IMG/VR virus record: IMGVR_UViG_2778261533_000001
Location: 18,026-82,025 of that record
Length of the DNA stretch: 64,000 nt
Direction: 5' to 3' (one strand)
Source of the DNA: a virus
Lineage: Duplodnaviria > Heunggongvirae > Uroviricota > Caudoviricetes
Under the pieces are notes generated by a model. It was not told the DNA's origin. It worked only from the letters and a program-made list of their open reading frames with translations, and ran no database searches. Position numbers and translations under genes: made by a program. The number at the start of each line of letters is the position of its first letter. Position 1 is the stretch's first letter. This document shows, one piece after another, positions 1 to 51,738 of this stretch.

Positions 1-132
1 ATTGAAAATGTAAAAAAACAAATTGCCATCACTCGCGAAGAGAAAAAGGTTAAGTCAGCCGCATCAGTTACGCGCAGCCGTAAAACCAAGAAGGGGCAGC
101 CAGTAAACGACAACCCCGAAAGCGCGCAATAA
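1..132 (+). CDS. c1: C1 repressor of lysogeny, 3' end (partial, begins upstream of window)
   Basis: Frame-1 translation from nt 1 gives IENVKKQIAITREEKKVKSAASVTRSRKTKKGQPVNDNPESAQ then stop, matching the remembered C-terminus of P1 C1; consistent with the C1 operator-like sites scattered through the window. Confidence 0.85.
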   Translation: MENVKKQIAITREEKKVKSAASVTRSRKTKKGQPVNDNPESAQ

Positions 133-164
133 ATTATGCCCGGCATCAACCGGGCATTCTTCCA

Positions 165-1280
165 TTATTCAGCCGCCACCGGTTTTAACAAACCAGCATC
201 AAGTAGCTTGCGAGTTAACCACTGCTGGCCTTTACCCGTTAATTGAGGCGTCAACCGTATCTGGTAGCCATCTTCATCATCCAGCACCACTTCTTTCACC
301 GTGAAATACCCGGCGTTGATGTATTGCTGGAACGGCACATTTTTACGTCCGCCGGACGCAATCAGGATGCCGTTCTCCCGTAACCAGGCAAACAGCGCGT
401 TTTGCTTAAGTCCAACAACCTTTGCAAAATTTCCAATCAGGATCCCCTTGGCCACTGATACCCGGTCGGCAAAATCGACCTTAGGGGCGGCGGCCACCAG
501 CTGCTGATTTAGCTGGTGGGCTTTCTGTTCCAGAAGTTGCTTTTGTTCAGCCAGTTCGGCAGCCAGGCGCAGAGCTTCAGGAAGCGTCTGGGGGATTGTG
601 ACCGGTTGCTGTTCTTTTTGTCGGAAGTAGCTGTCTTCCAGTTTTTCAAAGAATGCCCATGCCTGATCAGTTTCGAGCATTTTAGCGTGACGGGCAGCGC
701 CGCGTTCTGTCCAGAGAGTGAGTGAGCGGGCTTTGGGTGAGACTGGATTTTGTGAGTAGTTTAAAGCTACCCGCAAATTTTTCAGCTCATCGCCAATAAC
801 CTTGAAAAAGTGCTTCCCTTCAACAAAGCGCACTTTGTTCTCATGATGATTCTGGCGAATACGGATTGTTTCTGTCCCATACCCTTTTGCAAGAGTCTCG
901 GTTGTCACTACACGCATCCCCTGCCACTCCAGAACGGGAATTTCATCCGGCTGATTTTGAGCAACCACCAGCTCCGATTTCTGAACTGAAGTTGCATGAA
1001 TTTTTTCTGATTTAACGTTAGTTGCTTTCATTCTGTGTGCCTCCTTGCGTGCTTCGGCTGCGATGGTTGCGTAATTCAGATGCCCCTGTTCGAGCAGGTA
1101 TTCGCGGATATCAGACAACAGGATACGGTGAACCGCGTTCTTGTCCTTTCTCCGGTAAAGTTGTTTGGTGATCATGAAGTAGTTGGCAATAACGCCTGGT
1201 ATATCTCTGGTGCTGATACAGGCAGTGTGCTGTTCAATTGCCTCAATCATTTCTTCACGGGTGACTAATGACGTTCTCAT
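165..1280 (-). CDS. Antirepressor-like protein (Ant/KilA C-terminal domain family), second copy
   Basis: 371-aa ORF; N- and C-terminal regions nearly identical to the 469-aa Ant at 49780..51189 (C-terminal ~180 aa shared, ending LTGKGQQWLTRKLLDAGLLKPV); start overlaps stop of upstream icd-like ORF. Confidence 0.6.
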   Translation of the reverse strand: MRTSLVTREEMIEAIEQHTACISTRDIPGVIANYFMITKQLYRRKDKNAVHRILLSDIREYLLEQGHLNYATIAAEARKEAHRMKATNVKSEKIHATSVQKSELVVAQNQPDEIPVLEWQGMRVVTTETLAKGYGTETIRIRQNHHENKVRFVEGKHFFKVIGDELKNLRVALNYSQNPVSPKARSLTLWTERGAARHAKMLETDQAWAFFEKLEDSYFRQKEQQPVTIPQTLPEALRLAAELAEQKQLLEQKAHQLNQQLVAAAPKVDFADRVSVAKGILIGNFAKVVGLKQNALFAWLRENGILIASGGRKNVPFQQYINAGYFTVKEVVLDDEDGYQIRLTPQLTGKGQQWLTRKLLDAGLLKPVAAE

Positions 1281-1498
1281 ACTCCCTCCTGAGCAGAAGC
1301 GTTAACAGGGAGGCACCAGTAACTGAGAGAATTGCGCGAATCAGTAGAAAAACGGGCGGAGAAAATGCAAGGTGCATCAGGAAGCTGAGGGCGAGCCTCA
1401 TCTTCTGTCGGTGCAATAACGAAGTGATAGTGACGTTTCTGGCAGGAATAAAAGCGCCAGATAAATTCAGGGTGAGTTGGGGTAGGGATAGTAGCCAT
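1277..1498 (-). CDS. Icd-like small protein (second copy)
   Basis: 73 aa, paralog of the Icd at 51186..51407 (shared EFIWRFYSC.K.HYHFVIA.TEDEAR.QLPD.PCIF.ARFST.SRNSLSYW); RBS AAGGAGG upstream; overlaps ant-like start. Confidence 0.6.
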   Translation of the reverse strand: MATIPTPTHPEFIWRFYSCQKRHYHFVIAPTEDEARPQLPDAPCIFSARFSTDSRNSLSYWCLPVNASAQEGV

Positions 1499-1837
1499 AA
1501 TGGCAGCCTCCTTTTGCTAACTTAAGGAGCTACCGCGTGAGGTTCCAATCTCAATGGCGGTAGCACTGACTGGGTTGGAACTACCGGCGCAAAAGGGAAC
1601 CGGCCTGCCTTTCGGCAGCCCAGCCAGCACTACCATTGATCTCGGAGCTATGTGCTACGTATGGCTGTGCGATGGCATGACACAAAAAAAGACGCTTTTG
1701 GCGTCTGTGTCGCCTTTTGCATTATCCGGGGTTCCAATCCCGGCACCCGTTTTAATGAGGTGCCTGATAAGCATAAACCGAAAATGCCTCAAGGCGCAAG
1801 AGGTCAGGTTCAATGTAACATCGGTAGTTAAAAAACA

Positions 1838-1854
1838 CAATTTATTAGAGCAAA
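1838..1854 (-). promoter_or_regulatory. C1 operator-like site (15/17 to ATTGCTCTAATAAATTT) upstream of the second icd-ant module
   Basis: Sequence aatttattagagcaa on plus strand, the reverse complement of the P1 C1 operator consensus. Confidence 0.55.
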
Positions 1855-1857
1855 TAT

Positions 1858-3342
1858 TCATTCATTAAGCCATGCCAGAGCTTCATCAACCTGCGCTTCG
1901 TCTTCGACGCTAAGCACTTCATCCTGGGGAACATAATCCGCCAGCATAGCGAAACAATATGTATCCCAATGGTCTGGTGAGTGCAGGTTGAGTTTTTTCT
2001 TCATATCCTCCTTACTCATCACCTTCCATTGACCTGCGGAGTTAATCCCTACAGGGATTTTCGACGCTTCCTCAATAGTTTCATTACCCTTATCCAGTCT
2101 CATACGACCAGATTTTACGGCCTCTGCGGCTTGAACGTTGGCATAAGCACGTTTATCAAAGTACAGGCTCTTATCTTCACGGCTATGCATCTTTTTACCC
2201 CAGCGTATACGCTGTACGGTAATACCATAATACTCGTACATCAGATCCGCCGTTGCTTTACCCAGGCCATCGCCGTCTATCGCTATGGTGATATTTGGGA
2301 ATCGCTCAGGATTGCATTCTGCAAAAATTTTGGCGGCAAGCTGCGTTTCTGTAACGTCTGTGTATTCCAGCATTCGATAGTTGATTACACGGCGTTTATT
2401 TCGCTGGCCGGACACCATCATGATATTGATAACGGACTTATCCCGTCCCGTACCACCAGCAACGTCCACACATGCAAGCCAGCCCCATCCTTTGGCAATC
2501 TTGACTTTCCGCCGCGTTGCACGTTCAACCTCATCACGTCCAAGAAGGAAGCCATCCTGTGATTTAGGGAATAGGCCGCGTACCTTAATCATGTACATAG
2601 GGTTATCACGCCCGCCGTACTCCGCCAACTTCATTTTGATAAATGCTGGCGTTACCAGCGGTGATTCCTCACTGTTAAGCGTGATCGCCGTATAAACGCC
2701 ATCAGGGTTACCAGGACGCTTGGCCAGTTTATGGTGTGTATCGTAGAAATAGCCGCTTGGGCGTGTAGGCTGTGACAGTAATAAGATGCGGTTATCCTGT
2801 CCGGTAAGAGCACCGGTGATGATACCGAAAGCTCTATCACTGACACCGGAGGCTTCATCGATAATATACAGAAGATGATCTGCGTGTTCACCGGCGAGAG
2901 CTTCTTCACTTCCCAGACGAAAGCCCTTCGGTACTACAGTCCATACACCTTTACCAGTAACCTCATAGAAAGCGGTTTCTGTCAGAACAAAATAATCAGC
3001 AAGCCATGGGAAACGGCTGGTGGCAGTAGCCCAGTTTATCTTGATGTACTTGAATATACCGGTCATTACCTGCTGAATTTTGTTCGCAACGATAATGGCG
3101 CGGGCACCGGGATACATGATTATGAACAACATGATCATGATAGAAGTCATGTCTGATTTCCCGGTACCGTGACCAGACGAAACAGATGTCTTGCTACCCT
3201 GTTCCTGCACAGACTCAATAATCAGATCCTGCTGCCAGGTAGGTGTTTTGCCGAACAAAACATCAGCGGCCGCAATCCAGTCATAACGATATAGCGCCAC
3301 CAGCTCGCGCCAACGTGGATCCGTTACGCAACTTCTGGACAT
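1858..3342 (-). CDS. pacB: Terminase large subunit / packaging protein PacB
   Basis: 494 aa, same length and position as P1 PacB; immediately downstream of pacA with overlapping start/stop; Walker-like GHGTGKSD motif. Confidence 0.88.
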
Positions 3343-4535
3343 TAATCATCATCCCCGTATAGCTTGCGGGTAACTTCTTCGTCTTCCTCCTCGTCTTCGT
3401 CCAGGTCTTGTTCCAGCCATGGGTCGTTTGATACACCTTCAGTATCAACATCTCCATAACCGCCTGTATCAACGATATCGGCGATTTCTTCCCTACGTTG
3501 CTCAATCCACAATGCAGCATCGGCGCGGCGGTTGGCGGCCCGTTCTCGCGCAACTTTGTCCAGATCTTCAAGAGAAGGGCCACCGACGGCAGTTTGCCTT
3601 TCCTCATCATCGGCATTTGTCTTAGGAGCACGCAGATCGGCTTTGATTTGCTCCAGCATCAGGGGCGGCACTTTCCCTCCATGCGCCTCGATGAATTCAG
3701 CCGCTTCCAGCACTGACCAGTTATTTTCACGCTTTCGTTCGTATGCCAGCTTAACAATGCCAGCTTGCCCCATAGATAAAGCGTGCTTTTCCGCCTCCCG
3801 GCTTTCTTTTCGATAGTTATTCCGGATGCTGTAAATGGTGTTGATCAGGCTGCTTATCTGCGCGGAACAGCTGTTTAGCATGCTCGCGATACGGTATTCA
3901 GGCGGAGTACCTTCATCATCGTCTTTTTGCTGATCGCGCATTTCCTGCACCAGGCGAATACACGTATCCCTGGCGTTCTCCAGCATAAGGAGATGAGAAA
4001 GAGACTTTTCAAGAAGAGTGGTTTCCAGAACATCGGCCCCGGACCGACGCAACATAGCGCGCGCGGCCTTCCGCGCTTCAACGTTATCTATCAGGTAATC
4101 GCCCGCTTCGAATTCAAAGCGTTCACCATCATCATCCAGGGTGTCGCGTTCCAGGCGATCACGTAAGGTCCGGTGGGCACGGGTGATCACGTCATGATCA
4201 TCTGAACGATCATTTATGCGCTTATTTTGGCGCTTCGCATTCTCGACTGCGGCACTGACAACGGCATTAACCCTTTGTTTTTCCGCTATTTCAGCCGCAA
4301 TGCGATCACCTGCATGTTGATCATTAGAGTGATCAATGATCATGCTTTTTAGTGGCTTCCTGACTGGCTTATTTGGCTTGCGGCTGTCCGCTGTCCTGGT
4401 GTCTTCTTTGAAGGCACGGAGATAACGACGTGCAGTATTAGGGTTAAGATTAAACTCGGCGGCATACTGTGCGATGGTGTAACCACCATCTCGCGCCAGG
4501 CGAGCAAAATTCTTCTTGTGATCGTCCCAGGTCAC
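3342..4535 (-). CDS. pacA: Packaging protein PacA (pac-site recognition/cleavage subunit)
   Basis: 397 aa; N-terminus [28 protein letters not shown] and acidic C-terminus [18 protein letters not shown] match remembered P1 PacA; GATC-hexamer pac site lies inside its 5' region. Confidence 0.9.
4150..4345. other. pac site: two clusters of Dam-site (GATC) hexanucleotides
   Basis: GATC at 4157, 4185, 4196, 4208 and at 4304, 4319, 4331, 4338, mostly in TGATCA/CGATCA context, two clusters about 100 bp apart inside pacA as in the P1 pac site. Confidence 0.65.
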
Positions 4536-4620
4536 TTATGCTTCCTTTCGAAAAAACTCTTTTTGACGCGAGGGTAACGAAAGTCACATGTCAAAAGGCC
4601 CGGAACGGGCAAGCAATCAA

Positions 4621-5073
4621 TCAGATACGTGCGGATGTGGCATTACCGTAATGACGGTGCTGACGGGCCACCTTATTGAAAAGTTGACGCGCCATTACCC
4701 AAGGCTGGTGCTCCCGGCGTTCCTTTTCGTCCTGCGTCATATAGAGTTCGTTCTGGAGTTTTTCATCAAACCGGCGCGGTGCGCGGCTGCGGCGAAAGAA
4801 TTCAGGGTTCAGAGAGTGGATCTGAAATCTACGTGGGCGTGTACTATCGTCAATCAAAACAGACGAATACTTAGACACAGCGATAGCCTTTAAGCGCAGA
4901 TAAACGTCGCGCTTATCGACATCCAGATGCGGGTATTCCTTTTCAAGGATTGCTGCGAGTTCTTTCGCTGATAGAAGAGATTTAGTGCGGATCATGTAAT
5001 CCGCAATCTCATACGATGTTATTCGTGAGTGATTTATTTCCATGAAGTGGCGTCCCTGCCAGTTAAGTAACAT
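4621..5073 (-). CDS. lpa: Late promoter activator-like protein (Lpa position)
   Basis: 150-aa ORF directly upstream of pacA; C1 operator-like site in its upstream region (5144..5160); position matches P1 lpa. Confidence 0.55.
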   Translation of the reverse strand: MLLNWQGRHFMEINHSRITSYEIADYMIRTKSLLSAKELAAILEKEYPHLDVDKRDVYLRLKAIAVSKYSSVLIDDSTRPRRFQIHSLNPEFFRRSRAPRRFDEKLQNELYMTQDEKERREHQPWVMARQLFNKVARQHRHYGNATSARI

Positions 5074-5143
5074 CCTGTCACCTACTGATTAGCCCATGTC
5101 AACTAATCAACGTGGAATATAATACTCTCGATTAAAGAAATAG

Positions 5144-5160
5144 CAATACATTAGAGCAAT
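5144..5160 (-). promoter_or_regulatory. C1 operator-like site (14/17) upstream of lpa
   Basis: caatacattagagcaat on plus strand. Confidence 0.4.
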
Positions 5161-5161
5161 T

Positions 5162-6205
5162 TTATCTAACGCTCGACGAATGACTTGTGATAGCGCCGAC
5201 TCCAAGCGCGTAATCAAAGAACAATCGTTGATGCATCGCCAGCCTGCCGTGCGTTTTCTCCCAATTATCGCGGTCACGCTCAATATCACGCTGGCATGAC
5301 TGGCACAGAGGAATTGCGTAAATGTCATGCGCGCATAATCGACTATGACGAACGATATAAGGCGTAATGTGAGCGCCAGCTCCCGCAGCTCCACACCCAC
5401 AGCATGGACGGGAAGCAACAAAGTCCATGTACTCAGGTAATTTTAGCGATTGCAGTTTTGGTATTTTGAAATGCGCCATGCCAGGGTCGGAGTCAACATC
5501 CACAGGGCATACTTTTGCACGCATCGGCGCGGCGCGTTCTTCCATCATCTGAACATATGCTGTAGCGCGATCGTCATACGGGCGAATATCCGCCTCTTTC
5601 AGAGGTCCGCTATCCTGCGTTGCGGCTTTCATCTTATTTATTGATATACGGCAAACTTCTTCCGGCATCAGGTGCATCATGTTGCGCATGAAAGCCCACC
5701 AGCACAGTTCCTGAATACTTAAATCATGGCCATCTGAAAGCCCCATTTCCTGACGGGCGACATCCAGTATCCAGTTAACGCGATTATTATGCAGCGTTTC
5801 TTTCAGCTCATTAAAACCACGCATCCGGTAATGGTTATCGTGATGCCAGCACAACAACACCGCGCTATTGTCTCGTTCAGCGTGGACAATATGGTTGTCA
5901 CACCAACTACGATCTGCGGCCTGGCATTGACCCTCTTTCCTACGCAACCACGCCACCAGCGCGTCAATTCCACCAATACGGCGAAACAGTTCATCGCTGT
6001 TAAAAAACGGCTGCAACGCCTCATTTGTTGCCATAGTTTGCTCGGAAACAACGAGGCCGTCGTCCATGTGCTCGATTAACTCACGCGGCACCGGCTCCAT
6101 AATAAATTTACGGCCAGCCTCCACCAGCTTTCTGACTTCCTGATCCACTTTGAATGTGGCGACGCCAAGCTCTTTTTGTACAAAGGGAGTAATTACGGCT
6201 TTCAC
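5162..6205 (-). CDS. Hypothetical Cys-rich protein at the P1 pdcB (post-doc) position
   Basis: 347-aa ORF between doc and lpa; C-terminal CxxC-rich segments (RPCCGCG, CQSCQ); identity by synteny only. Confidence 0.45.
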
Positions 6206-6232
6206 ATCACACCTTTCATCACTGATTGGGCT

Positions 6233-6433
6233 TTATCTGCTGCCCGGCATTCTCTGTTTAAGCACAACCATTTCCTGACGGCATAACACAGCAATAGCGG
6301 TCCTGGCACCAATTTGCTTACCAACCAGGTATTGCTTTACCTCGCGGCGACTCACGCCATCAAGAAGCATCTTTAACGCTTCACGGGACAACTTGTTGTA
6401 TTTACGTGCCATTAATCTACTCCGCAGAACCAT
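6233..6433 (-). CDS. Small basic protein downstream of doc (pdcA position)
   Basis: 66-aa ORF overlapping the doc 3' end by 17 nt; identity by synteny only. Confidence 0.35.
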
Positions 6434-6797
6434 ACAATCTACGTAACGTGTCGGCGACAGAAGATACAGATATCTCGCCAGTCGCAGCCCCTACAGTAAG
6501 GTCTGCCAGTTCAGGGGAATCAAATACCTGCACCCCGTTACGGCGTAGAAATAGCAGCGCACTGTTTAGCGCGGTACGCTTATTGGCATCATTGAATATA
6601 TGCCCTCTCGCTGTAGCTACCAGGTAGGTGGCGGAGGCTTCGAAAAGGTCGGTGATCTCTTCGTAGGCAACTCTGGCCTGAACTCTCCCGATAATGGCCT
6701 CTGCCCTACCCGGATCAGACATTCCCGGCAGGCCGCCGTAGCGGCTTATATTCGCATCATGAAGCGCAATAAGTTCTTCCGGTGATATATGCCTCAT
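6417..6797 (-). CDS. doc: Doc toxin (Fic-fold kinase) of the phd-doc addiction module
   Basis: 126 aa, [39 protein letters not shown]... essentially the P1 Doc sequence as remembered. Confidence 0.95.
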
Positions 6798-7018
6798 TAT
6801 CGGTTAACCAGTTCCTTGTTGGTGGAGTCCAGGGTGTCAAACAGGGATGCAAATTCAGCATCCAGCGCCGCTTTTTTGTAGGCTTCGAAAGTAGCCTTGC
6901 TGACAATTACTGCTGGCTCACGGCCTCTGCGGGTGATTTCAACCTCTTCCCCGGCTTCAACATTGTTGAGCACTTCAGAAAGGTTGCCACGCGCGGTACG
7001 GAAGTTAATGGATTGCAT
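6797..7018 (-). CDS. phd: Phd antitoxin
   Basis: ORF 6797..7024; P1 Phd begins [39 protein letters not shown], so start taken at second Met (73 aa). Confidence 0.9.
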
Positions 7019-7090
7019 AAACACCTCGTGTACTCGTTATGTGTACACAATTATAAACTTCACAGGCATAAAGCACCAGCACTTTGCAGC

Positions 7091-7480
7091 TTAAATAACC
7101 GGACAATCATCAAACTCCCCACTTCGGGCATCATTGATGACATGAGTGATCACACCAAAAACAGCATTACTGCCCGTGTATCCATCGTCATCTACTGGTA
7201 ACGCCTCTTTCTTCCCGGTGCTTAAATCCTCCAGGTGCTGGCGCGGATACTTCCTGTATCTCTTTATGCGATATTCACCCTCCATAGCGCACACAAGCAG
7301 AGAACCATCAACCGGAGTAAGCGAGGAATCAACCACCAGCAAAGCACCCTGCAATATTCCCTCACGGTGATGGCTATCAGCTGCCCGCATGAAGTAGGTT
7401 GCTGATGGATGCCTGATTAGTTGCTGATCAAGAGAAATTCGGCTTTCAACATAATCCGCCGCAGGAGAAGGGAAGCCCAT
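7091..7480 (-). CDS. humD: UmuD' homolog HumD
   Basis: 129 aa, MGFPSPAADYVE... with S24-peptidase-like core, located upstream of phd-doc as in P1. Confidence 0.85.
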   Translation of the reverse strand: MGFPSPAADYVESRISLDQQLIRHPSATYFMRAADSHHREGILQGALLVVDSSLTPVDGSLLVCAMEGEYRIKRYRKYPRQHLEDLSTGKKEALPVDDDGYTGSNAVFGVITHVINDARSGEFDDCPVI

Positions 7481-7805
7481 AGCGTTTTCACCTCAATAAT
7501 ACTGTTAATTTATACAGTATACATTAAAGAGACACCTTTGGTGCAAACGCGTTACGTACATCAACCACCGCTGATGATTTTGTGCTCTTTGCTACTATTC
7601 ATCACCAACGGATCAGCGTATCGGTAATTCACATTGGCTATGTCCGCCTGTCCATCGAAGAAGATGAAGATCGTTATATCGTACGCCACTATACATTGGA
7701 CAGAAAAGAGCTTCCCAATGAATGGAACATGAGTAATTTCTACAACGGTGAATATGGCTTAAAACCCGCTATGAATGGCGCGGGCATTGCGTAATAGCCT
7801 AACAA

Positions 7806-8045
7806 CTATTCTGTTTTCTGATATGCCGGATCGTTCCCTTTTGGCAGCTGGAGGCTTAACTGCCGGTAGTGCCGTAGACGTTCCATGAAATAGGTGCGCA
7901 GATTCTCTGGTTGCTCGCGGGCTACCTGTTCAGCTATGACAGGTATGTTCAATCGCTCTTTGTACGCCACACCGCTGGCAGCCAGATCAACGTTAACCTT
8001 ATCCCGTTCTTCCTGACTTTTAGCTGCAATATTCCAGTCGCTCAT
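7806..8045 (-). CDS. hot: Pol III theta-subunit homolog Hot
   Basis: 79 aa; [35 protein letters not shown] closely resembles E. coli HolE/P1 Hot. Confidence 0.85.
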
Positions 8046-8047
8046 AT

Positions 8048-8320
8048 TTAAGGCTCACATTTCCAGATGGTATTCTGAACACCCGAACCGGGCGCAAGAT
8101 TAGGGTTAGCGTTCGCGCTATGCTGATATACTGCTTTAGACTTCCCATATTGCTGACAGGCTTTATCTGCGGTTTTTTGCAGGCTATCCAGGCCATACCA
8201 ACCATCTGACTGTATGCTTACCTTTTCACCGTCGTTGTATTGCACCATTGCACACCCAGATATAGCCAGTATCGCACCGACAATAACGCTTTTCCATAAA
8301 ACTCTATGCAACATATACAA
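8048..8320 (-). CDS. Putative lipoprotein
   Basis: 90 aa with signal peptide and lipobox (AILAISGC). Confidence 0.5.
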
Positions 8321-8359
8321 AAATCCCCTCTGTGAATTGAGGGGATTTTAGCATGGTGA

Positions 8360-8995
8360 TCAGATATCGGCCTTATTCGGAATTTTATCAGCCACCAGCG
8401 GCAATAAAGCCTTCGCCATTTCATGAACCAACATGGCATCAATGACGCCTAGCGTATGGCCCGGTTTAATGTTTAATGCCGCCTCAAGATGACTCCTTTC
8501 CAGGCCGCTTTTCTCGGCTTGTTTATGACGATCTGGTGTAATAACTTCGCCCAAAACGCGGCTAATTTTTTCTCGTAATTGCTGGGTGCCAGCACACTTG
8601 ATCGCTGTATCGTGGAGACGGTTAACCAGTTCGCGATAAACATGCGGCTTAATGCGGATACGTTCACCGGTGACGCCCTTTCCTGGCGCTGGCACCGAAC
8701 TATCCGGATAGTTGCCAGCCTCGTAAGCTACCCGCAGCCAGTGCATGAATGTTTCAGTGGACACACAACCACAGTCCACATCGATTTTTCCGCGTTGCTG
8801 TTCCAGCCACTGCTCAAAATTCAATCTACACGTATTACTTTCATGTTGCTCTTTTTGTCTCAAGGCCAGCATCTGCTGGGCTATTTCCAATACTTCATCT
8901 GCCGTATATCCAGCACCGTGACCATACATTTCGATACGGGAAATAATCTCTGATATACGCTCTTCAGTGATTCTGGTCATTTCTTTTTGCGCCAT
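8360..8995 (-). CDS. Hypothetical protein
   Basis: 211-aa ORF, co-oriented, overlaps the next gene by 19 nt. Confidence 0.45.
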   Translation of the reverse strand: MAQKEMTRITEERISEIISRIEMYGHGAGYTADEVLEIAQQMLALRQKEQHESNTCRLNFEQWLEQQRGKIDVDCGCVSTETFMHWLRVAYEAGNYPDSSVPAPGKGVTGERIRIKPHVYRELVNRLHDTAIKCAGTQQLREKISRVLGEVITPDRHKQAEKSGLERSHLEAALNIKPGHTLGVIDAMLVHEMAKALLPLVADKIPNKADI

Positions 8996-9348
8996 TTCTT
9001 TTCACATTCCTTAGTCCATTTTTCAATGTTCATTTTGGCAATATCAGTCATTCCATCACCTAAGAAATACTTTTTCCGGTATGTCTTGCACTTAAACCAC
9101 ACTACAACAGCCACCAGCCAGAAAATAAAAGGCCATACAGCAATACCAACGACAGCCGCGATAAAGCCCAATAGCCATAAATGAAGCTCTCCAACTTCTG
9201 TTTCCGGCAATATTCTTAAAGAATTAAACAGCAGGCTGAACGAATGGTCGTATGCATTGGCGGTATAAGACATGCAATCCATATAATTAAAGTCATAGCC
9301 TGCGGCTGCCGCCCATAATGGGCGGTCAAGAAAATGTTTTAGTGTCAT
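8977..9348 (-). CDS. Putative membrane protein
   Basis: 123 aa with a long hydrophobic segment (LWLLGFIAAVVGIAVWPFIFWLVAVVVW). Confidence 0.45.
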   Translation of the reverse strand: MTLKHFLDRPLWAAAAGYDFNYMDCMSYTANAYDHSFSLLFNSLRILPETEVGELHLWLLGFIAAVVGIAVWPFIFWLVAVVVWFKCKTYRKKYFLGDGMTDIAKMNIEKWTKECEKKWRKKK

Positions 9349-9830
9349 TATATAAATTTAAGGTTCAGACCAGTTATCTTCAATAGCAATGCTTAATCTT
9401 TGTAGCCATTCTGCTAATTTCAGCATTGCTTCTCTTTCGCTTAAACCACGAGGAAAATCATCAAGCGAAATTGTTGGCTTGAATCCCCCCGCAATTATCC
9501 ATTTCAACTGTCAGATTTTGTTCCAGCACGGTATTTCTTACGCGGCTATTGTGCCGAAGCAAATATACTGAGCGTGATTTATTGGTTTTGTGGTCTAGCT
9601 TATATTCGGTAAGTATCATCTGGCTTTTGCCATGATTATTACCTCTCCACATACTTACCTCACTTAATAAAACAACTCCATGCGTAGTTGATGATTTTTT
9701 CCCACGTAATATAAATCTGCACTCCGGCAGTAAAACCAAAGCCAACAATTGCTGAAAAAATCAAAACATTTACTTTTGACATTATAAATTTTCTCTCGGT
9801 GTCGTAGGTGATAGCACCATAATTGATAAT

Positions 9831-10064
9831 TTAGTGAGTTAGCAGTTCCATTTTTTTGATGATTTCCGCATGAGCATCATCGTTATCAACACTTAGCTCG
9901 TTTAATGCTTCTCGCACTACATCAACTTCTTCAGGCTGAAAGAAGTCGTCGCGGTAATCACCAAATAGAACCGAAACCAGCCTGCCACCAGCAACATCAA
10001 GATTGGCGCTAACAGGTGGCTCTTTGCCATCCTCAAATTCGACTACAAAAGTTAATTTCCCCAT
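9831..10064 (-). CDS. Hypothetical small acidic protein
   Basis: 77-aa ORF. Confidence 0.35.
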   Translation of the reverse strand: MGKLTFVVEFEDGKEPPVSANLDVAGGRLVSVLFGDYRDDFFQPEEVDVVREALNELSVDNDDAHAEIIKKMELLTH

Positions 10065-10140
10065 CGTTACCCCCAGAAGATAAAAATAGCGGCAATCGCC
10101 ATAGCTACGCCTACAATCGCAAATGCTTCAGGCCAGCTTA

Positions 10141-36085: not shown

Positions 36086-36142
36086 TTGTTGATAACTGCA
36101 ATCCAGATGACGCCAGGCCGCGCCACATATGGAGAAACCACG

Positions 36143-37027
36143 ATGCCGGAAGAAAATAAAGGCTTCCTTAGCGTTGAAGAAGTTGCAGGAAATACAGGAG
36201 AAATCCACAGCCTGAAACCCAATAACAATAGCACTATACAACCCATCGCTTTGTTGCGCTTAGGTGTGTTTGTGCCAACCTTAAAATCTACCAATGTGGC
36301 ACTACGTCGCGGATCGTCAGTTACTACAAACACAACGAACGCAACCGAAGAACTATCAAGCCTCAAAATTGTTGAGCAGGAAGGCTATGAGGGAATTGAA
36401 ATACATGGTCCACGCCTGGATATGGATACTGATTTTAAGGTGTGGGTGGGCATAACCTCCGCGTTGTTTGACTACGCACCTGATGATGACGGCATAATCA
36501 CCCTGCCATTCTCCGAGTTTGCCGATCGATGTGGCTATCCACGTAAGCGCCTTTCAAAGGCGTTCCGTAAAAGTATTGATGACTCTCTAACACGCATTCA
36601 GCAAACAGTTGTCAAATTCCGCTTCCCGGCGGCAAAAGGTCATCTCAATAACATTAACGTCAACTTGTTGGCATATAGCAGCCTGAATACCGAGCTTGAT
36701 GTTATCGAGATCCAGCCGCAAAAACAGCTATCTGAACTTTACTATGTTGACTATAAGCGAATCCTGAAGCTGAAGATGCTGGATAAGCTCGGGCGCAAAG
36801 AGACGGCCAAGGTGCTGTATACATTCTTTGAGGCTCTACCCGCCAACCCGGCACCTGTCAGCATTGAGCGCCTTAGAGCAAGGCTTAATCTCAAATCATC
36901 CGTTAGCGTGCAAAATAGCGTTATCAGAAAAGCCATGAAAGATTTGGAAGCTATTGAATATCTTAAATTTTCAGAGATAAAAAACGGCAGGAAAATCGGC
37001 TTCCAGATTCATAAGCGCAATCCATAA
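36143..37027 (+). CDS. repA: Plasmid replication initiator RepA (P1/RepFIB family)
   Basis: QPIALLRLGVFVP and GPRLDMDTDFKVWVGI blocks and C-terminal ...HKRNP match remembered P1 RepA; start placed at MPEENKG after RBS GGAG (ORF opens at 36086). Confidence 0.85.
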   Translation: MPEENKGFLSVEEVAGNTGEIHSLKPNNNSTIQPIALLRLGVFVPTLKSTNVALRRGSSVTTNTTNATEELSSLKIVEQEGYEGIEIHGPRLDMDTDFKVWVGITSALFDYAPDDDGIITLPFSEFADRCGYPRKRLSKAFRKSIDDSLTRIQQTVVKFRFPAAKGHLNNINVNLLAYSSLNTELDVIEIQPQKQLSELYYVDYKRILKLKMLDKLGRKETAKVLYTFFEALPANPAPVSIERLRARLNLKSSVSVQNSVIRKAMKDLEAIEYLKFSEIKNGRKIGFQIHKRNP

Positions 37028-37300
37028 TATTGACTATATGCGATAGCGAGAAGTTGACTATAGGCGACATTCGTTGACGCTGGTGGATTTTTGCTGGCGT
37101 CAATATTCTGCAAGTCGCTATTGAGATGGCTTTTAGGGTCATTTCATCGCGTATAGTCAACGTTTCTCCCGACAATATCTTACATAGTCGATCTTTGGTG
37201 GAGTTAAATCGACTACAGTCAACTTTTGACTGTAGTCACATCGCGCATAGTCAACTATTCACATTAACCTTCGCGCATAGTCAACATTTGCGCGGTTCTC
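37028..37300. repeat. incA-like iteron array downstream of repA (copy-number control)
   Basis: About 9 copies of TTGACTATAGGCGA-like iterons in both orientations. Confidence 0.65.
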
Positions 37301-37319
37301 ATCAAGCAGTGGTACTGAT

Positions 37320-38129
37320 ATGCAAGAAGAGAAACAACACTACCTCTACGTTCTGGTGCCGGAGAACGGAGATACTTTTAAAATCGGTATTTCATGTGGT
37401 CCATTGGCACGGTTTAAAGGGCTACAAGTGAGTCCCGATTTTGCGCTTTCACGGGTCTATCGTGGTACGCGTTTGGCAATGGTTAATCTTGAGCGGGCTT
37501 TACACGCAACCTTTTTCCCCTGGAATGCGCCGTGGGAGAAAAGCGCCGGTGGCGGGCATACTGAATGGTTTACACGAGAGTGTCTTGATAAGGTTTTGGC
37601 TCATATCGAATATCTAAATGATATGTGGGGAGGGATTCTCGAGCGCATTAAGTCGAATGATTTACTTCAGCGTCCAGTAGATGCTGCTCGCTCTTTCGAA
37701 AAAGAGTTGGATGTTACTTCTATCGTGACTTTCAAAGATGACGCAGGAATGAGGGACGTGGCTTATGTCTCCATATCTGGCTATGAACCGGACGCGATCC
37801 GCGCTCAATGTGAATTGCTGAAAGCAGTGTTTATGCTTCGGACTAAATATCCCTGGGAGACAGGGCGGGTGTGCTTCCCTATGGAAGAGTTAACCGCCAC
37901 CATTGATTCCCAGCTTTACCACGATAATCCAGAGAAGTTTTTTAGCCTTTTAGCCGGTAATGGGCTTAACTGTGTGTCCGGGCTGGGGCGAAGTAGAATC
38001 CAACATGCCTCGCTCTTCGGTCCCTTCTTTTACGATCGACACGGGTACTTTGAGGCTGAACTTCCGGCGCTTACGCGTGCTATAGATACTATCGATTTCG
38101 AACGATTATTCGCTGCTCTTAGCAAATAA
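37320..38129 (+). CDS. T5orf172 / GIY-YIG-like domain protein with uncharacterised C-terminal domain
   Basis: 269 aa; HYLYVLVPENGDTFKIGIS...R...GGGHTEWF matches the T5orf172 (GIY-YIG superfamily) signature; followed by a strong terminator. Confidence 0.55.
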   Translation: MQEEKQHYLYVLVPENGDTFKIGISCGPLARFKGLQVSPDFALSRVYRGTRLAMVNLERALHATFFPWNAPWEKSAGGGHTEWFTRECLDKVLAHIEYLNDMWGGILERIKSNDLLQRPVDAARSFEKELDVTSIVTFKDDAGMRDVAYVSISGYEPDAIRAQCELLKAVFMLRTKYPWETGRVCFPMEELTATIDSQLYHDNPEKFFSLLAGNGLNCVSGLGRSRIQHASLFGPFFYDRHGYFEAELPALTRAIDTIDFERLFAALSK

Positions 38130-38136
38130 CACTGAT

Positions 38137-38158
38137 GCCCCTGAACGGGGCTTTTTTG
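38137..38158 (+). terminator. Rho-independent terminator
   Basis: gcccctg-aac-ggggc followed by tttttt. Confidence 0.7.
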
Positions 38159-38297
38159 TGCCCTCCTTGTAACTCTCAATCGTGCAAAATGAACCAAACA
38201 TGCAGAGAATGCTATGTACAAGCATCTGTGCATACATTATTATTTTATGCAGCATTTTTAAGTAAATTCAAAAATACAGCATAAAGGATGACTTTCG

Positions 38298-39494
38298 ATG
38301 AGTGATTCCAGCCAGCTTCACAAGGTTGCTCAAAGAGCAAACAGAATGCTCAATGTTCTGACTGAACAAGTACAGTTGCAAAAGGATGAGCTACACGCGA
38401 ACGAGTTTTACCAGGTCTATGCGAAAGCGGCACTGGCAAAATTGCCTCTACTGACTCGAGCGAACGTTGACTATGCCGTAAGTGAAATGGAAGAAAAGGG
38501 TTATGTTTTCGATAAACGCCCTGCTGGCTCTTCAATGAAATATGCGATGTCAATTCAGAACATCATTGACATATATGAACATCGCGGAGTGCCAAAATAC
38601 CGGGATCGCTACAGCGAAGCGTATGTGATTTTCATCTCCAATCTTAAAGGCGGTGTGTCAAAAACTGTATCGACGGTTTCTCTGGCGCATGCAATGCGTG
38701 CCCACCCTCATCTTCTGATGGAAGATTTAAGGATTCTGGTTATTGACCTTGATCCGCAATCTTCAGCGACGATGTTTTTAAGCCATAAACACTCTATTGG
38801 TATCGTAAACGCAACATCTGCACAGGCTATGTTGCAGAATGTAAGCCGTGAAGAGCTGTTAGAGGAGTTTATTGTTCCTTCTGTTGTACCTGGGGTTGAC
38901 GTTATGCCTGCGTCGATTGACGATGCCTTTATTGCATCCGATTGGAGAGAACTGTGCAATGAGCATCTGCCGGGTCAGAACATCCATGCAGTCCTGAAAG
39001 AAAATGTGATTGATAAGCTCAAGAGCGATTATGACTTTATCCTTGTTGATAGTGGTCCTCACCTTGACGCCTTCCTGAAAAATGCTTTGGCCTCGGCCAA
39101 TATACTGTTTACACCTCTGCCGCCTGCAACGGTTGATTTCCACTCATCGCTTAAATATGTTGCTCGCCTTCCTGAGTTGGTGAAACTCATTTCGGATGAA
39201 GGCTGCGAGTGCCAGCTTGCGACTAACATTGGTTTTATGTCCAAGTTGAGTAACAAGGCAGACCATAAGTATTGCCATAGCCTGGCTAAAGAAGTGTTCG
39301 GTGGGGATATGCTCGATGTCGTCCTCCCTCGCCTTGACGGTTTTGAACGTTGCGGCGAGTCTTTTGACACTGTTATTTCAGCTAACCCGGCAACGTATGT
39401 TGGTAGTGCTGATGCATTGAAGAACGCGCGAATTGCCGCGGAAGATTTTGCTAAAGCAGTTTTTGACCGTATTGAATTTATCAGATCTAACTGA
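38298..39494 (+). CDS. parA: Partition ATPase ParA (type Ia, with N-terminal DNA-binding domain)
   Basis: 398 aa; deviant Walker A (NLKGGVSKT) and overall sequence matching remembered P1 ParA. Confidence 0.95.
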   Translation: MSDSSQLHKVAQRANRMLNVLTEQVQLQKDELHANEFYQVYAKAALAKLPLLTRANVDYAVSEMEEKGYVFDKRPAGSSMKYAMSIQNIIDIYEHRGVPKYRDRYSEAYVIFISNLKGGVSKTVSTVSLAHAMRAHPHLLMEDLRILVIDLDPQSSATMFLSHKHSIGIVNATSAQAMLQNVSREELLEEFIVPSVVPGVDVMPASIDDAFIASDWRELCNEHLPGQNIHAVLKENVIDKLKSDYDFILVDSGPHLDAFLKNALASANILFTPLPPATVDFHSSLKYVARLPELVKLISDEGCECQLATNIGFMSKLSNKADHKYCHSLAKEVFGGDMLDVVLPRLDGFERCGESFDTVISANPATYVGSADALKNARIAAEDFAKAVFDRIEFIRSN

Positions 39495-39510
39495 GGAGTA
39501 AGAAACCCCC

Positions 39511-40512
39511 ATGTCAAAGAAAAACAGACCAACAATTGGGCGAACCCTTAATCCTTCAATATTAAGCGGATTTGATAGTTCTTCAGCCTCTGGCGATCGA
39601 GTCGAGCAGGTATTCAAGTTATCTACTGGTCGCCAGGCCACATTTATCGAGGAGGTAATTCCTCCGAACCAGGTAGAAAGCGATACCTTTGTTGATCAGC
39701 ATAACAACGGGCGTGACCAGGCATCTCTTACGCCAAAATCATTAAAAAGTATCCGAAGCACTATTAAGCATCAGCAATTTTACCCTGCAATAGGTGTTAG
39801 ACGGGCTACAGGGAAAATTGAAATTTTGGATGGTTCCCGGCGTCGAGCTTCTGCCATCTTAGAGAACGTAGGGTTGCGGGTTTTAGTCACGGACCAGGAG
39901 ATCAGCGTTCAGGAAGCGCAAAATTTAGCGAAAGACGTTCAGACAGCATTGCAGCACAGCATTCGAGAAATAGGTCTGCGTTTGATGCGAATGAAAAATG
40001 ATGGGATGAGTCAGAAGGATATTGCAGCCAAAGAAGGGCTGTCTCAGGCGAAGGTCACGCGTGCTCTCCAGGCAGCGAGTGCTCCGGAAGAATTAGTCGC
40101 CCTTTTCCCTGTGCAGTCGGAATTAACCTTTTCGGACTACAAAACGCTTTGTGCTGTTGGCGACGAAATGGGGAACAAGAATTTAGAGTTTGATCAGCTT
40201 ATTCAAAACATATCCCCGGAAATAAACGACATCTTATCCATTGAAGAAATGGCCGAAGATGAAGTTAAAAATAAAATCCTGCGCTTGATAACAAAGGAAG
40301 CCTCACTACTCACGGATAAAGGTTCTAAAGATAAGTCCGTAGTTACTGAATTATGGAAATTTGAGGACAAGGATCGCTTTGCAAGGAAGCGCGTGAAAGG
40401 CCGTGCATTTTCTTATGAGTTTAATCGACTCTCAAAAGAGTTACAGGAAGAACTCGACAGGATGATTGGGCATATCCTTAGAAAGAGCCTCGATAAAAAG
40501 CCGAAGCCTTAA
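39511..40512 (+). CDS. parB: Partition protein ParB
   Basis: 333 aa, MSKKNRPTIGRTLNPSILSGFDSS... matching remembered P1 ParB. Confidence 0.95.
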   Translation: MSKKNRPTIGRTLNPSILSGFDSSSASGDRVEQVFKLSTGRQATFIEEVIPPNQVESDTFVDQHNNGRDQASLTPKSLKSIRSTIKHQQFYPAIGVRRATGKIEILDGSRRRASAILENVGLRVLVTDQEISVQEAQNLAKDVQTALQHSIREIGLRLMRMKNDGMSQKDIAAKEGLSQAKVTRALQAASAPEELVALFPVQSELTFSDYKTLCAVGDEMGNKNLEFDQLIQNISPEINDILSIEEMAEDEVKNKILRLITKEASLLTDKGSKDKSVVTELWKFEDKDRFARKRVKGRAFSYEFNRLSKELQEELDRMIGHILRKSLDKKPKP

Positions 40513-48814: not shown

Positions 48815-49615
48815 TTAGCGCGTTGCCGCGACAGGTACCAGCACACCAGCATCAAGCAATCGCTTCATCAGCCACTGCTGACCTTTGCCGGTTATACGAG
48901 TCGTGAAAGAAATCCTGCTTCCATTGCTTGTATCGATCACGGTTTCTTTAAGGGTGAAATACCCACGAGATATGTATTCTTGTTTGGGGACGTTCCTGCG
49001 TTCACCGGTTGCGATCAGAATTCCGTTATCACGCAACCAGGTGAAGAGATAGTTTTGGCCCAGGCCGAGCACTTTGGCATAGTTGCCGATTAGAACCCCG
49101 CTGGCGGTAGCAACGCGTTCGGCGAATTCGACTTTAGGTGCATCCATAAGCATTTTTTGCTCCAGCCGTTGCTTTTGCTCTGCCAGGTCGGCAGCCAAAC
49201 GGAGAGCTTCAGGGAGACTCTGCGGAATAGCAGGTTGTAATCTTCCGGCTCGATAGTCGATAAATGTCTGGTTTACCTTCAGCCGAAATGCGGGAGAAAT
49301 CCAGCCTGCGTACTCCACAGCGAGCAATTCATGGGCAAAAGTGCCGCCGCCACGGCCTTCGAACGAAACTATGCAATTCTGCATAGTTTCTTTTTCAAGC
49401 TCTTCGATGAGCTGTTTGGCTGACAGCGTTCTTAGCCATTGAGCTGGCGCTTTATGGGCACCGAGTCCGCTCGCTCTGTGTAGAGCATTAAGGTTGTAAC
49501 GGCCAGCGCGGTCGGTCGTAATTTCAACACCACAAATAACAGGCAGAGTGGTTGAAGGATCGACATTTTGATGAAGGTTTGATATATTCATATCCGCATT
49601 GAATGTTTGTTGCAT
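48815..49615 (-). CDS. kilA: KilA-like protein (KilA-N domain plus Ant-type C-terminal domain)
   Basis: 266 aa; C-terminal 130 aa homologous to Ant C-termini (LPEALRLAA.LAEQKQ.LEQK...APKV.FA.RV); C1 operator upstream. Confidence 0.65.
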   Translation of the reverse strand: MQQTFNADMNISNLHQNVDPSTTLPVICGVEITTDRAGRYNLNALHRASGLGAHKAPAQWLRTLSAKQLIEELEKETMQNCIVSFEGRGGGTFAHELLAVEYAGWISPAFRLKVNQTFIDYRAGRLQPAIPQSLPEALRLAADLAEQKQRLEQKMLMDAPKVEFAERVATASGVLIGNYAKVLGLGQNYLFTWLRDNGILIATGERRNVPKQEYISRGYFTLKETVIDTSNGSRISFTTRITGKGQQWLMKRLLDAGVLVPVAATR

Positions 49616-49684: not shown

Positions 49685-49701
49685 AAATTTATTAGAGCAA
49701 A
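49685..49701 (-). promoter_or_regulatory. C1 operator-like site (16/17) upstream of kilA-repL
   Basis: aaatttattagagcaaa. Confidence 0.6.
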
Positions 49702-49779: not shown

Positions 49780-51189
49780 TTAACCTATTGCTACTGGTTT
49801 TAACAAACCAGCATCAAGTAGCTTGCGAGTTAACCACTGCTGGCCTTTACCCGTTAATTGGGGCGTCAGCCGTATCTGGTAGCCATTTTCATCATCCAGT
49901 ACCACTTCTTTCACCGTGAAATACCCGGCGTTGATGTACTGTTGGCGCGGTACGTTTTTGCGCGCACCAAAAGCCATGAGAATGCCGTTCTGGCGCAACC
50001 ATGAGAAAAGGGCGTTTTGCTTAAGTCCAACGACCTTTGCAAAGTTCCCGATCAGGATTCCATTAGCCACTGATACCCGGTCGGCAAAATCGACTTTAGG
50101 GGCTGCGGCCACCAGCTGCTGATTTAGCTGGTGAGTTTTCTGTTCCAGTAGCTGCTTTTGTTCAGCCAGCTCGGCAGCCAGGCGCAGAGCTTCGGGAAGC
50201 GTCTGGGGGATTGCGACCGGTTGCTGTTCTTTTTGCCGGAAGTAGCTATCTTCCAGTTTTTCAAAGAATGCCCACGCTTGCTCTGTGTCTACGATCTTAG
50301 ACATGCGTGCCGCTCCGCGTTCGGTCCAGAGTATTAAGGATCTGGTCTTGGGGGAAATTTGCAACTCGCTAAAAGATAGTCGCAAACTTTTTATCTCATC
50401 TCCTTTGATTTTAAAGAAGTGTTTACCCTCTACAAATCGTTCTTCATTGCGATTGTAGTTCTGCTGAATACGAATAGGTGTAGTGCCATACCCTCTAGCA
50501 AGAGTCTCGGTTGTCACGACGCGTACTCCCTGCCATTCCAGAACGGGAATTTCATCAGGATGATTTTCAACATTTATAGGTTCCAATGCCTGAATCATGG
50601 TATGTAGCGAACGGCGGACCGCTTTTGACTCGCGCGCGGCAACTCGCAGGGCTTGTTTGTAGGTCATGGTTATGACAACCATAGGCGTACCGCCACCTGG
50701 CGGCACGGTTGCACTTTTTGTGTAACCGTCCTCACCTTCTAATTCGTCGAGTATTTTTTCGATGAATTTGTTGTTCCGAACCTCTGGTTCCCCACATAAC
50801 TTACGCGCTTCATTGACCATCTTTAACAGTGTCTGGCTGTCGATTGTGTCTCCAGTGTTGGAGATAACATTCACAGCTGGTGATGGCGTAGCTGAAGCAA
50901 CAGGTGCTGGTTTTTCAACATTCAAATTATTACCGGTCATTCTATGTGCCTCCTTTCTCATTTCTGCTGCCACTGTTGCGTAACGTAGACGTCCTTGTTC
51001 AATCAAATAGTCCCTGATCTCGGCTATCAGTAGCCTGTTGATCACAGCCTTATCTGTTCGGGTATAAAAACGCCTGGTTATCATGAAATAGTTGGCAATT
51101 GCGCCGGGGATCTCCCGTGTCGGCATACAGGTTGTATGCAGGGCGATCGCTTCGGCTATTTCATTACGGGTGACGAGAGGTTTTTTCAT
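49780..51189 (-). CDS. ant: Antirepressor Ant (Ant1-type)
   Basis: 469 aa directly downstream of icd with overlapping start/stop; C-terminal domain shared with KilA and the 371-aa paralog. Confidence 0.7.
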   Translation of the reverse strand: MKKPLVTRNEIAEAIALHTTCMPTREIPGAIANYFMITRRFYTRTDKAVINRLLIAEIRDYLIEQGRLRYATVAAEMRKEAHRMTGNNLNVEKPAPVASATPSPAVNVISNTGDTIDSQTLLKMVNEARKLCGEPEVRNNKFIEKILDELEGEDGYTKSATVPPGGGTPMVVITMTYKQALRVAARESKAVRRSLHTMIQALEPINVENHPDEIPVLEWQGVRVVTTETLARGYGTTPIRIQQNYNRNEERFVEGKHFFKIKGDEIKSLRLSFSELQISPKTRSLILWTERGAARMSKIVDTEQAWAFFEKLEDSYFRQKEQQPVAIPQTLPEALRLAAELAEQKQLLEQKTHQLNQQLVAAAPKVDFADRVSVANGILIGNFAKVVGLKQNALFSWLRQNGILMAFGARKNVPRQQYINAGYFTVKEVVLDDENGYQIRLTPQLTGKGQQWLTRKLLDAGLLKPVAIG

Positions 51190-51407: not shown

Positions 51408-51721
51408 AGTTACGGCCTCACAATCAGGTTTAACAACCTGCTACCCGCTGCTAAACAGGTGGCAGGACGTGACGGGGTTAGCAGACTGGCGATTGTGAAA
51501 CCAGCAGGCCGAAGCCTCCCCATCACGCCCCACCATAATTTGGGCGTAACGCGGTTTTACGGACACAAAAATACCGCAATATCGGATATCTGCGGCTGTC
51601 CGCACAATCATTCAGGCTGCTAAACCCGGTCGCAGAATTTGCTACGACGGCGAAACTATAAGCCTGAACGATTAAAAGGTCAATATGATGCGAAAAGATA
51701 GCATTCACGACTTAAAAATAC
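51408..51721 (-). ncRNA. c4-type antisense RNA and leader region of the immunity I operon (boundaries approximate)
   Basis: Untranslated about 300-nt leader between C1 operator (51722..51738) and icd; P1 encodes the c4 antisense RNA here; exact RNA ends not determinable by eye. Confidence 0.35.
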
Positions 51722-51738
51722 AAATTTATTAGAGCATT
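51722..51738 (-). promoter_or_regulatory. C1 operator-like site (16/17) upstream of the c4-icd-ant operon
   Basis: aaatttattagagcatt. Confidence 0.6.

Follow-up and report, generated by a model that had tools for sequence, protein, structure and literature searches.

We analyzed 64,000 nucleotides of the IMG/VR virus record IMGVR_UViG_2778261533_000001 (positions 18,026 to 82,025), hereafter called the window, with a focus on a long direct repeat shared by its two antirepressor (ant) genes. Our results suggest, with a probability of roughly 0.7, that this repeat corresponds to a conserved 3′ half shared by ant paralogues, each of which appears to lie in a complete and separately addressed immI operon. 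The initial annotation of this DNA missed the full second C4-icd-ant immunity module to which the repeat belongs. P1-like phage-plasmids are frequent carriers of resistance genes in Escherichia coli, and immunity governs their coexistence, exclusion, and mutual induction.

The window is recognizable as part of a P1-like plasmid prophage (Punavirus). Positions 1–3400, which span c1, ant, pacB, and pacA, match phage RCS47 with 95.3% identity, and repL, kilA, ant, icd, and c4 are located at 47.9–51.8 kb, the same set as in P1 and P7. We refer to the immI copy adjoining pacB as M1 and to the canonical copy adjoining kilA/repL as M2. Judged from the sequence, the window has two entire immI operons of P1 type, with an operator, an a1/b1 leader, a C4 RNA, the a2/b2 target sites, icd, and ant in both copies; all coordinates are collected in Table 1.

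Both C4 RNAs score above the Rfam gathering score for this family (45 bits for RF01695), as does the M2 leader for the c4-a1b1 family (46.7 bits for RF03163), where the upstream targets occupy 51617–51624 (a1) and 51603–51609 (b1). The M1 leader matches isrK (RF01394) at 1685–1763 with 62.4 bits against a gathering score of 50, its match to c4-a1b1 being weak (23 bits). In both modules, the icd stop codon overlaps the ant start codon, which suggests translational coupling of the two open reading frames (ORFs). Both ant genes also carry AAGGAGG-N8-ATG at codon 84, which at the sequence level is the ant2 position of P1 and P7; the internal ATG lies at 1029–1031 in M1, preceded by AAGGAGG at 1040–1046, and at 50938–50940 in M2. 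Pfam assigned an ORF6N domain (2.9e-20) and an ANT/KilAC domain (4.4e-32) to Ant(M1). The homologue of positions 165–1280 in RCS47 is annotated as ant, and homologues of the M1 icd in related plasmids are annotated as Icd-like.

The sites before both modules are predicted C1 operators, and the one in M1 aligns with Op51 of P1 and P7. Altogether, the window contains 11 C1 operator-like sites, compared with 0.41 expected by chance. Of these 11, eight with at most three mismatches lie away from the ant and kilA genes; they are spread across 5144–33614 and include an overlapping inverted pair at 29288–29315.

To compare the addresses of the two modules, six leaders were aligned for their C4 elements and targets. 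The M2 C4 is that of P7 in both elements (loop CACAAUC and single-stranded CUGCUAA) and in all four targets, with UUUAGCAG at the a-sites and GAUUGUG at the b-sites. P1 departs from P7 at exactly the C4 elements and targets, and one study reports this pair as heteroimmune (PMC6906374). The M1 a-sites read GAUUGGAAC and the b-sites GCAAAAGG, the downstream b-site overlapping the Shine-Dalgarno sequence of icd (AAGGAGG, 1507–1513). Both M1 C4 elements, the hairpin-2 loop CCCUUUUGC (1589–1597) and the 3′ single-stranded GUUCCAA (1575–1581), are unlike those of M2.

Pairing energies were calculated with RNAduplex for the C4 elements against the icd leader; these values leave out C4 folding, and free pairing inflates the off-target ones. 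For M1 and M2, the cognate duplexes gave −21.2 and −26.0 kcal/mol and the cross-combinations −14.4 and −16.2 kcal/mol; for P1 and P7, the corresponding values were −22.1 and −26.0 for cognate and −15.3 and −19.8 kcal/mol for crossed pairs. In each row of the matrix, the cognate duplex ranked first. The gap between cognate and crossed pairs is larger for M1/M2 than for the heteroimmune P1/P7, and by that yardstick the C4 switches of M1 and M2 are predicted to be orthogonal.

We scanned IMG/VR with the M1-type C4 core, leaving the recognition positions free, and retrieved 71 loci, which together with the window and reference modules formed a set of 76 M1-type modules. All 76 have a C4 loop element that is complementary to the upstream and the downstream b-site. 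Complementarity of the single-stranded element holds for a2 in 76/76 modules and for a1 in 74/76. The family divides into four classes, in which a UUG or UGA loop is combined with a single-stranded UC or CU. Covariation of C4 and target across the four classes argues for selection on the pairing, and we regard C4-target pairing on these alignments as being under selection. A comparison within one locus agrees with this pattern, as the cassettes of the window and RCS47 are ~95% identical yet differ in both C4 elements, with all compensating changes present. In 27 of the IMG/VR loci (L011, L012, L014, and 24 others), the M1-type C4-icd precedes a gene without KilAC outside the pacB and kilA contexts, and in 25 of these 27 the Icd-like ORF has 65–67% amino acid identity; outside P1-like prophages, the M1-type RNA switch seems to have been paired with different effectors.

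The repeat itself was readily recovered by alignment. With blastn, 175–958 matched 49790–50567 with 83.0% identity over 788 bp (E = 0), far above chance, and a search for repeat families in the window gave a family (D1) spanning the same homology. The initial annotation had placed a long, same-orientation repeat between the ant genes about 49 kb apart, which alignment bears out with copies in direct orientation spaced ~49.6 kb. Its figure of about 95% identity over more than 500 bp was too high. An ungapped comparison of 165–730 with 49780–50345 gave 86.0% (487/566), and the best 500 bp (183–682 against 49798–50297) reached 89.0% (445/500). Identity comes in patches: 96.6% at 179–323, 70.0% at 324–403, 92.2% at 404–595, and 79.3% at 596–730, with the longest exact runs measuring 65, 38, 29, 29, 26, and 23 bp.

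The two ant 3′ portions do match as had been proposed, but the homology does not end near 730. It continues at ~70% through the ORF6N domain up to 958 and returns in the ant 5′ end (64–65%), in icd (72%; 80% for repeat family D4, 1308–1468 against 51217–51377), and in the C4 leader. At the protein level, Ant(M1) and Ant(M2) are 78% identical over 293 residues, and their C-terminal 168 residues are 92% identical. Pfam places a KilAC/ANT domain in Ant(M1), Ant(M2), and KilA (111.1, 105.1, and 112.2 bits for PF03374, with a cut-off of 25.3 bits) and an ORF6N domain in both Ants. The description of kilA as a more diverged copy holds, with 62% DNA identity at 48828–49127 and 59% amino acid identity between Ant(M1) and KilA over 164 residues. 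A repeat of this kind can mislead the short-read assembly of these plasmids.

The history of the 3′ half differs from that of the remaining module. Between M1 and M2, the C-terminal 168 codons of ant have a synonymous divergence (dS) of 0.48 and a nonsynonymous divergence (dN) of 0.04, giving a dN/dS of ~0.085, whereas dS is saturated in the ant N terminus and in icd, the latter with 72% nucleotide identity to its canonical counterpart. This contrast suggests a more recent common origin of the 3′ half, which by its dN/dS is under strong purifying selection.

A block-wise comparison of seven ant alleles gave incongruent groupings. Block 324–403 occurs in two types that are 70% identical to each other, one in the window M1, the RCS47 M1, and the NZ_CP058684 allele at kilA, the other in the window M2, P1, P7, and the NZ_CP023961 allele at kilA. 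In block 504–595, the window M2 groups with the M1 type and not with P7. The last 150 nt track the locus and not the 5′ type; the kilA-locus copies all end in KPVAIG and are 97–100% alike, and the ectopic copies end in KPVAAE. Breakpoints were also found in IMG/VR, where an M1-type C4 is joined to a P7-type icd-ant (L022 and others) and an M1-type icd to a P7-type ant middle (L055). In our reading, these mosaics reflect immI cassettes that related phages have often exchanged by homologous recombination, one of the homology arms probably being the ant 3′ half. Gene conversion between antirepressor alleles had been put forward for the window; across genomes, the mosaic 3′ half is in line with it, but the two copies of the window bear no sign of recent exchange. 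The ORF6N-coding segment of the canonical ant (50119–50605) is absent from P1 and P7 ant1. We rejected gene conversion as the source of this ORF6N patch, given that NZ_CP098199 has the same ant and no ectopic module.

The 1.7-kb M1 cassette extends from its operator through the ant stop codon and stands in place of a c1-pacB spacer of ~25 bp. At the empty site, in SJ46 and NZ_CP098199, the c1 and pacB stop codons are ~24–25 bp apart. The junctions of the cassette showed no target-site duplication and no ends of a transposon or other mobile element. The GC-rich hairpin at its c1 end is unlike the terminator 3′ of the canonical ant in alignment. RCS47, vB_EcoM-673R5, and JL22 have a full-length M1 at the c1-pacB site, and full-length matches were found in 320 of the 72,556 plasmids of PLSDB and in 321/5426 complete E. 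coli genomes, the best at 96.2% identity (NZ_CP114131). The c1 repressor is in the flank of M1 in every plasmid among the matches listed, and a pacB/c1 context was present in 33 of the 71 IMG/VR loci with an M1-type C4. In the phage collection, no record covers 80% or more of the M2 module; many plasmids carry it at ~99% identity.

Several observations accompany the cassette. In phi456, the last 333 bp of an ectopic ant stand beside c1 and are followed by IS1 with InsB (L002, 5165–5497), and this insertion sequence-mediated truncation also removed pacAB from that position. A 39-residue coding sequence called by PGAP as an "ash family protein" nearly coincides with the C4 RNA in the RefSeq plasmids NZ_CP023961 (L007, 5809–5928) and NZ_CP058684 (L008, 5829–5948), and the label recurs in most plasmid matches. 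In L008, the Rfam C4 lies at 5865–5952 on the same strand, and the call is probably a spurious protein prediction on the C4 RNA gene. Parts of window positions 1–3400 also match more than 100 Stx-converting phages.

Venturini et al. (2019) noted no more of the insertion than an ant gene and two short ORFs, and the passages searched in that paper give no description of a complete C4-icd-ant module there (PMC6906374). The module type, the sharing of KilAC, and the insertion site are already known or annotated. Neither a description of the insertion as a full, differently addressed immI nor a four-class covarying address code or a locus-tracking ant 3′ end was found in the literature searched, which did not cover the genome papers of D6, P1, and RCS47.

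Other explanations of the repeat deserve consideration. The initial annotation regarded the two copies chiefly as RecA substrates for crossovers that split or delete the intervening DNA, here 49.6 kb, which would make the genome unstable. The RecA minimal processing segment is ~25 bp, and with direct copies sharing five or six exact blocks above about that length, a crossover is possible in principle; kilA, at 62% DNA identity, is too diverged to be a realistic partner. One IMG/VR contig from a short-read isolate, L050 (IMGVR_UViG_2778261639_000014, 25.9 kb), reads repL-kilA-ant-icd-C4-operator-pacB-pacA and has the topology of the predicted small circle. Its joined region lies at ~1930–11074, but the switch from M1 type to P7 type falls at the C4/icd boundary in the leader and not in ant. 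The contig may reflect either real recombination between the repeats or a misassembly that joined sequences across the duplicated leader. Beyond this contig, the evidence points the other way. Repeat identity is patchy and reaches only 86–89%, a level that cuts RecA/MutS-controlled recombination by orders of magnitude in mismatch-repair-proficient cells. RepA, ParA, ParB, and RepL lie between the repeats and c1 outside, such that a crossover should yield one circle of 49.6 kb, which would hold both replicons and several C1-controlled operators and lack c1, and another with c1 and no replicon; both would be expected to be lost or lethal. Neither the kilA-immI-pacB junction (queried with that of L050) nor the reciprocal junction of c1 with an M2-type 5′ ant (of which c1 made up only 14% of the query) occurred in any of the 72,556 PLSDB plasmids, and the arrangement is stably inherited in ~320 plasmids. 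The potential of the repeat as a RecA substrate stands as far as orientation and exact blocks of up to 65 bp are concerned, but as the main significance of the repeat, splitting off or loss of the 49.6 kb is unlikely. A kilA/ant-3′/M1-5′ chimera matched 25 PLSDB plasmids, which were discarded as candidate deletion circles; they are full-size (~90–97 kb) and carry a canonical immI of M1 type.

A recent duplication within the genome, or ongoing gene conversion that homogenizes the ant 3′ ends by concerted evolution, would account for a dS far below that of the saturated 5′ half, for the 65-bp identical run at the 3′ end, and for block 549–595, in which the window M1 and M2 group together (95.7%) against P7 and the RCS47 M1. 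However, the window M1 is nearer to its ectopic orthologues (93–95%) than to the window M2 (82–92%) in every 3′ block, and the 65-bp run sits in a block that is 97–100% conserved in nearly all alleles. The 469-residue M2 ant allele also occurs, with 98.9% identity, in NZ_CP098199, whose c1-pacB site is empty. A dS of 0.48 is not recent, and the regulatory halves of M1 and M2 come from different C4 families. We rejected recent duplication on these last two grounds and consider the explanation as a whole very unlikely. The proposal that M1 is a decaying, nonfunctional remnant of a recombination accident, with the repeat as leftover homology, finds a precedent in the IS1-truncated ectopic ant beside c1 in phi456. 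In the window, however, M1 keeps intact ORFs for ant and icd, with a dN/dS of ~0.085 in the shared part; the C4 RNA scores 76.7 bits, and the operator, Shine-Dalgarno sequence, coupling overlap, and internal start are all kept. Furthermore, C4-target covariation across four classes requires selection on pairing, and the module is present in hundreds of plasmids, which leaves decay very unlikely.

We therefore favor two complete, separately addressed immI operons that share a conserved ant 3′ half. Besides the simplifications in the RNAduplex energies given above, some points weigh against this interpretation. A promoter scan of M1 detected no sigma-70 consensus on the correct strand, and the weak candidate TTGAGG-17-TATCAG at 1764–1792 cannot be placed with confidence. 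Modules were counted within the 64-kb window, and a third may lie elsewhere in the genome. The mosaicism fits exchange within a genome and exchange between co-infecting phages alike. Expression of the M1 C4, repression of its own leader alone, and inactivation of C1 by Ant(M1) are predictions, and we infer a broader immunity benefit of the second module by analogy with the heteroimmunity of P1 and P7.

According to the P1 annotation, C4 blocks the translation of icd and of the coupled ant, and Ant1/Ant2 bind and inactivate C1. By analogy, each C4 of the window would pair only with the a2/b2 sites of its own leader, blocking translation of icd and, via coupling, expression of ant. A lysogen would then hold two antirepressors silent by two independent RNA addresses and would be immune to superinfecting P1-like phages with either the P7 address or the M1 address (the latter carried by, e.g., NZ_CP023961). 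As an infecting phage, the element would bring one Ant beyond the silencing reach of any resident with a single address. Both Ants presumably act on the same C1 repressor, which for Ant(M1) is suggested by the 92% C-terminal identity. In such a system, the homology provided by the ant 3′ half would promote the swapping of cassettes and would not be a driver of 49-kb deletions.

A broader proposal, to which we give somewhat less than an even chance, is that P1-like phage-plasmids accumulate C4-icd-ant modules, two or three per genome and orthogonal to one another, in an arms race, and that address cassettes move between phages and loci by way of the homology in the ant 3′ half. If so, each added C4 would widen the range of superinfecting relatives that are silenced, and each added Ant would break the immunity of residents without the matching C4. 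Immunity groups would correspond to a combinatorial two-element RNA address, the M1 family contributing four classes, the P1/P7/D6 family a minimum of four others, and NZ_CP058684 a further type. If the second module works as proposed, immunity type would be no single P1-or-P7 trait but a set of RNA addresses that can be stacked and recombined and can be read from the sequence; the mutual immunity of phage-plasmids would become predictable, and the recombination hotspot at the ant 3′ end would be explained.

Table 1. Features of the two immI modules and their surroundings (window coordinates)
Feature	Position	Strand	Basis and details
c1 repressor gene, 3′ end; remainder left of the window	1..132	+	Alignment with the RCS47 c1 end; c1 stop aligned with SJ46
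GC-rich hairpin between convergent c1 and ectopic ant, probable bidirectional terminator	136..157		Terminator-like match ATGCCCGGTTGATGCCGGGCAT
Ectopic ant (M1), 371 aa: N-terminal Ant1-type region, ORF6N, linker, KilAC	165..1280	-	ORF, Pfam
Repeat copy 1, ant 3′ two-thirds	175..958		blastn; high-identity core 179-683
icd-like gene of M1, 73 aa	1277..1498	-	ORF; stop overlaps ant start (ATGA)
M1 C4 targets in icd leader	1507..1550	-	a2 GAUUGGAAC 1542-1550; b2 GCAAAAGG 1510-1517
C4 antisense RNA of M1	1553..1640	-	Rfam RF01695, 76.7 bits
M1 leader RNA, isrK-like	1685..1776	-	a1 1731-1739, b1 1713-1720 in hairpins; intrinsic terminator 1690-1706
C1 operator-like site of M1	1838..1854	-	TTTGCTCTAATAAATTG, 2 mismatches to ATTGCTCTAATAAATTT; directly after pacB stop codon
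pacB (large terminase), right flank of cassette	1858..3342	-	ORF, RCS47 alignment
Plasmid replicon and partition genes (RepA-like, ParA, ParB) between repeats	36086..40512	+	Pfam Rep3_C, ParA HTH/AAA_31, ParB
kilA, 266 aa, KilA-N + KilAC; diverged third repeat copy	48815..49615	-	Pfam
Predicted C1 operator of kilA/repL, equivalent to Op53	49685..49701	-	Operator scan
Canonical ant (M2), 469 aa	49780..51189	-	5′ part P7/P1-type
Repeat copy 2	49790..50567		blastn
Canonical icd, 73 aa	51186..51407	-	Stop overlaps ant start (ATGA)
M2 targets, same as P7	51419..51455	-	a2 UUUAGCAG 51448-51455; b2 GAUUGUG(AGG) 51419-51425 over Shine-Dalgarno
C4 antisense RNA of M2	51455..51540	-	Rfam RF01695, 69.6 bits
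a1/b1 leader of M2	51603..51661	-	Rfam c4-a1b1 RF03163 (51609-51661), 54.6 bits
Predicted C1 operator of M2, equivalent to Op51	51722..51738	-	1 mismatch to ATTGCTCTAATAAATTT

Outside the immI modules, the window contains a Dmt-like double DNA methyltransferase ORF (29306–32347, minus strand, 1013 residues) with N6-adenine (752–984) and C5-cytosine methylase domains. Pfam also reports Hint_2 (77–126) and LAGLIDADG_3 (298–361) in this ORF, a combination suggestive of an intein that contains a homing endonuclease within the Dmt-like gene. Two further sets of direct repeats were found. One (55569–55780 and 55866–56077; 87% identity) is tandem-like with a spacing of 297 bp inside a 1263-residue ORF with an SLT domain, and the other, at 10782–12425, comprises three pairs with 79–87% identity and a spacing of 806 or 1312 bp. 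A cluster of three tRNA genes (Rfam) lies at 26766–28633 on the minus strand.

Among known systems, both modules of the window match immI of P1 and P7 in the order and kind of their parts, including the nested ant starts. M2 is of P7 type and is 98–99.5% identical to P7 in its 5′ blocks, with 99.5% for the icd block, but its 469-residue Ant has the ORF6N segment that P1 and P7 Ant1 lack. The M1 C4 belongs to a separate sequence family, with ~53% identity in the leader and different recognition elements. M1 also differs from P1 and P7 by its isrK-like leader, the ORF6N domain of its Ant, and its position between c1 and pacB rather than at kilA. P1 KilA has the C-terminal KilAC domain in common with both Ants and an N-terminal KilA-N domain rather than ORF6N.

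The ant insertion of RCS47 and pTZ20_1P (PMC6906374) is at the same locus and represents the same cassette as the window M1. RCS47 likewise has two modules, its ectopic C4 being of another class than the window M1; the loop target is GUCAAAGG and the single-stranded target UUGAGAC, compared with GCAAAAGG and UUGGAAC in the window. NZ_CP023961 carries the M1 class of the window at the canonical locus. NZ_CP058684 has three C4-icd-ant modules at three loci, each with its own address. The modules lie at L008 4480–6130 and at L082 24480–26098 and 34562–36240, and the one at the kilA locus is of M1 type. The c1-pacB locus of this plasmid has a further C4 type outside the M1 pattern (loop CCUUGGAC, single-stranded GGCCAA), and the third locus, between lysozyme and head-processing genes, has a P1-family C4 with the loop CAUUCGU.

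Phage D6 (NC_050154) also contains two C4-icd-antirepressor modules with differing elements, and a second c4-icd region has been noted in a D6-like plasmid (PMC6799933). The orf83 module of D6 is 93.6% identical to window positions 1436–1764 and has the loop element in common with M1, but its single-stranded element, GUCUCAA, is unlike that of M1. The D6 antirepressors are annotated as Rha/Roi-like and lack the shared KilAC 3′ half; hence, D6 has no long ant-ant repeat. Finally, the isrK-orf45-anrP region of Gifsy-1 in Salmonella resembles M1 in having a terminated isrK leader followed by a small ORF that is AUGA-coupled to an antirepressor-like gene (PMC4825925). In Gifsy-1, IsrK RNA activates anrP translation in trans (PMC4825925), and the likeness of M1 rests on the leader and the gene order.

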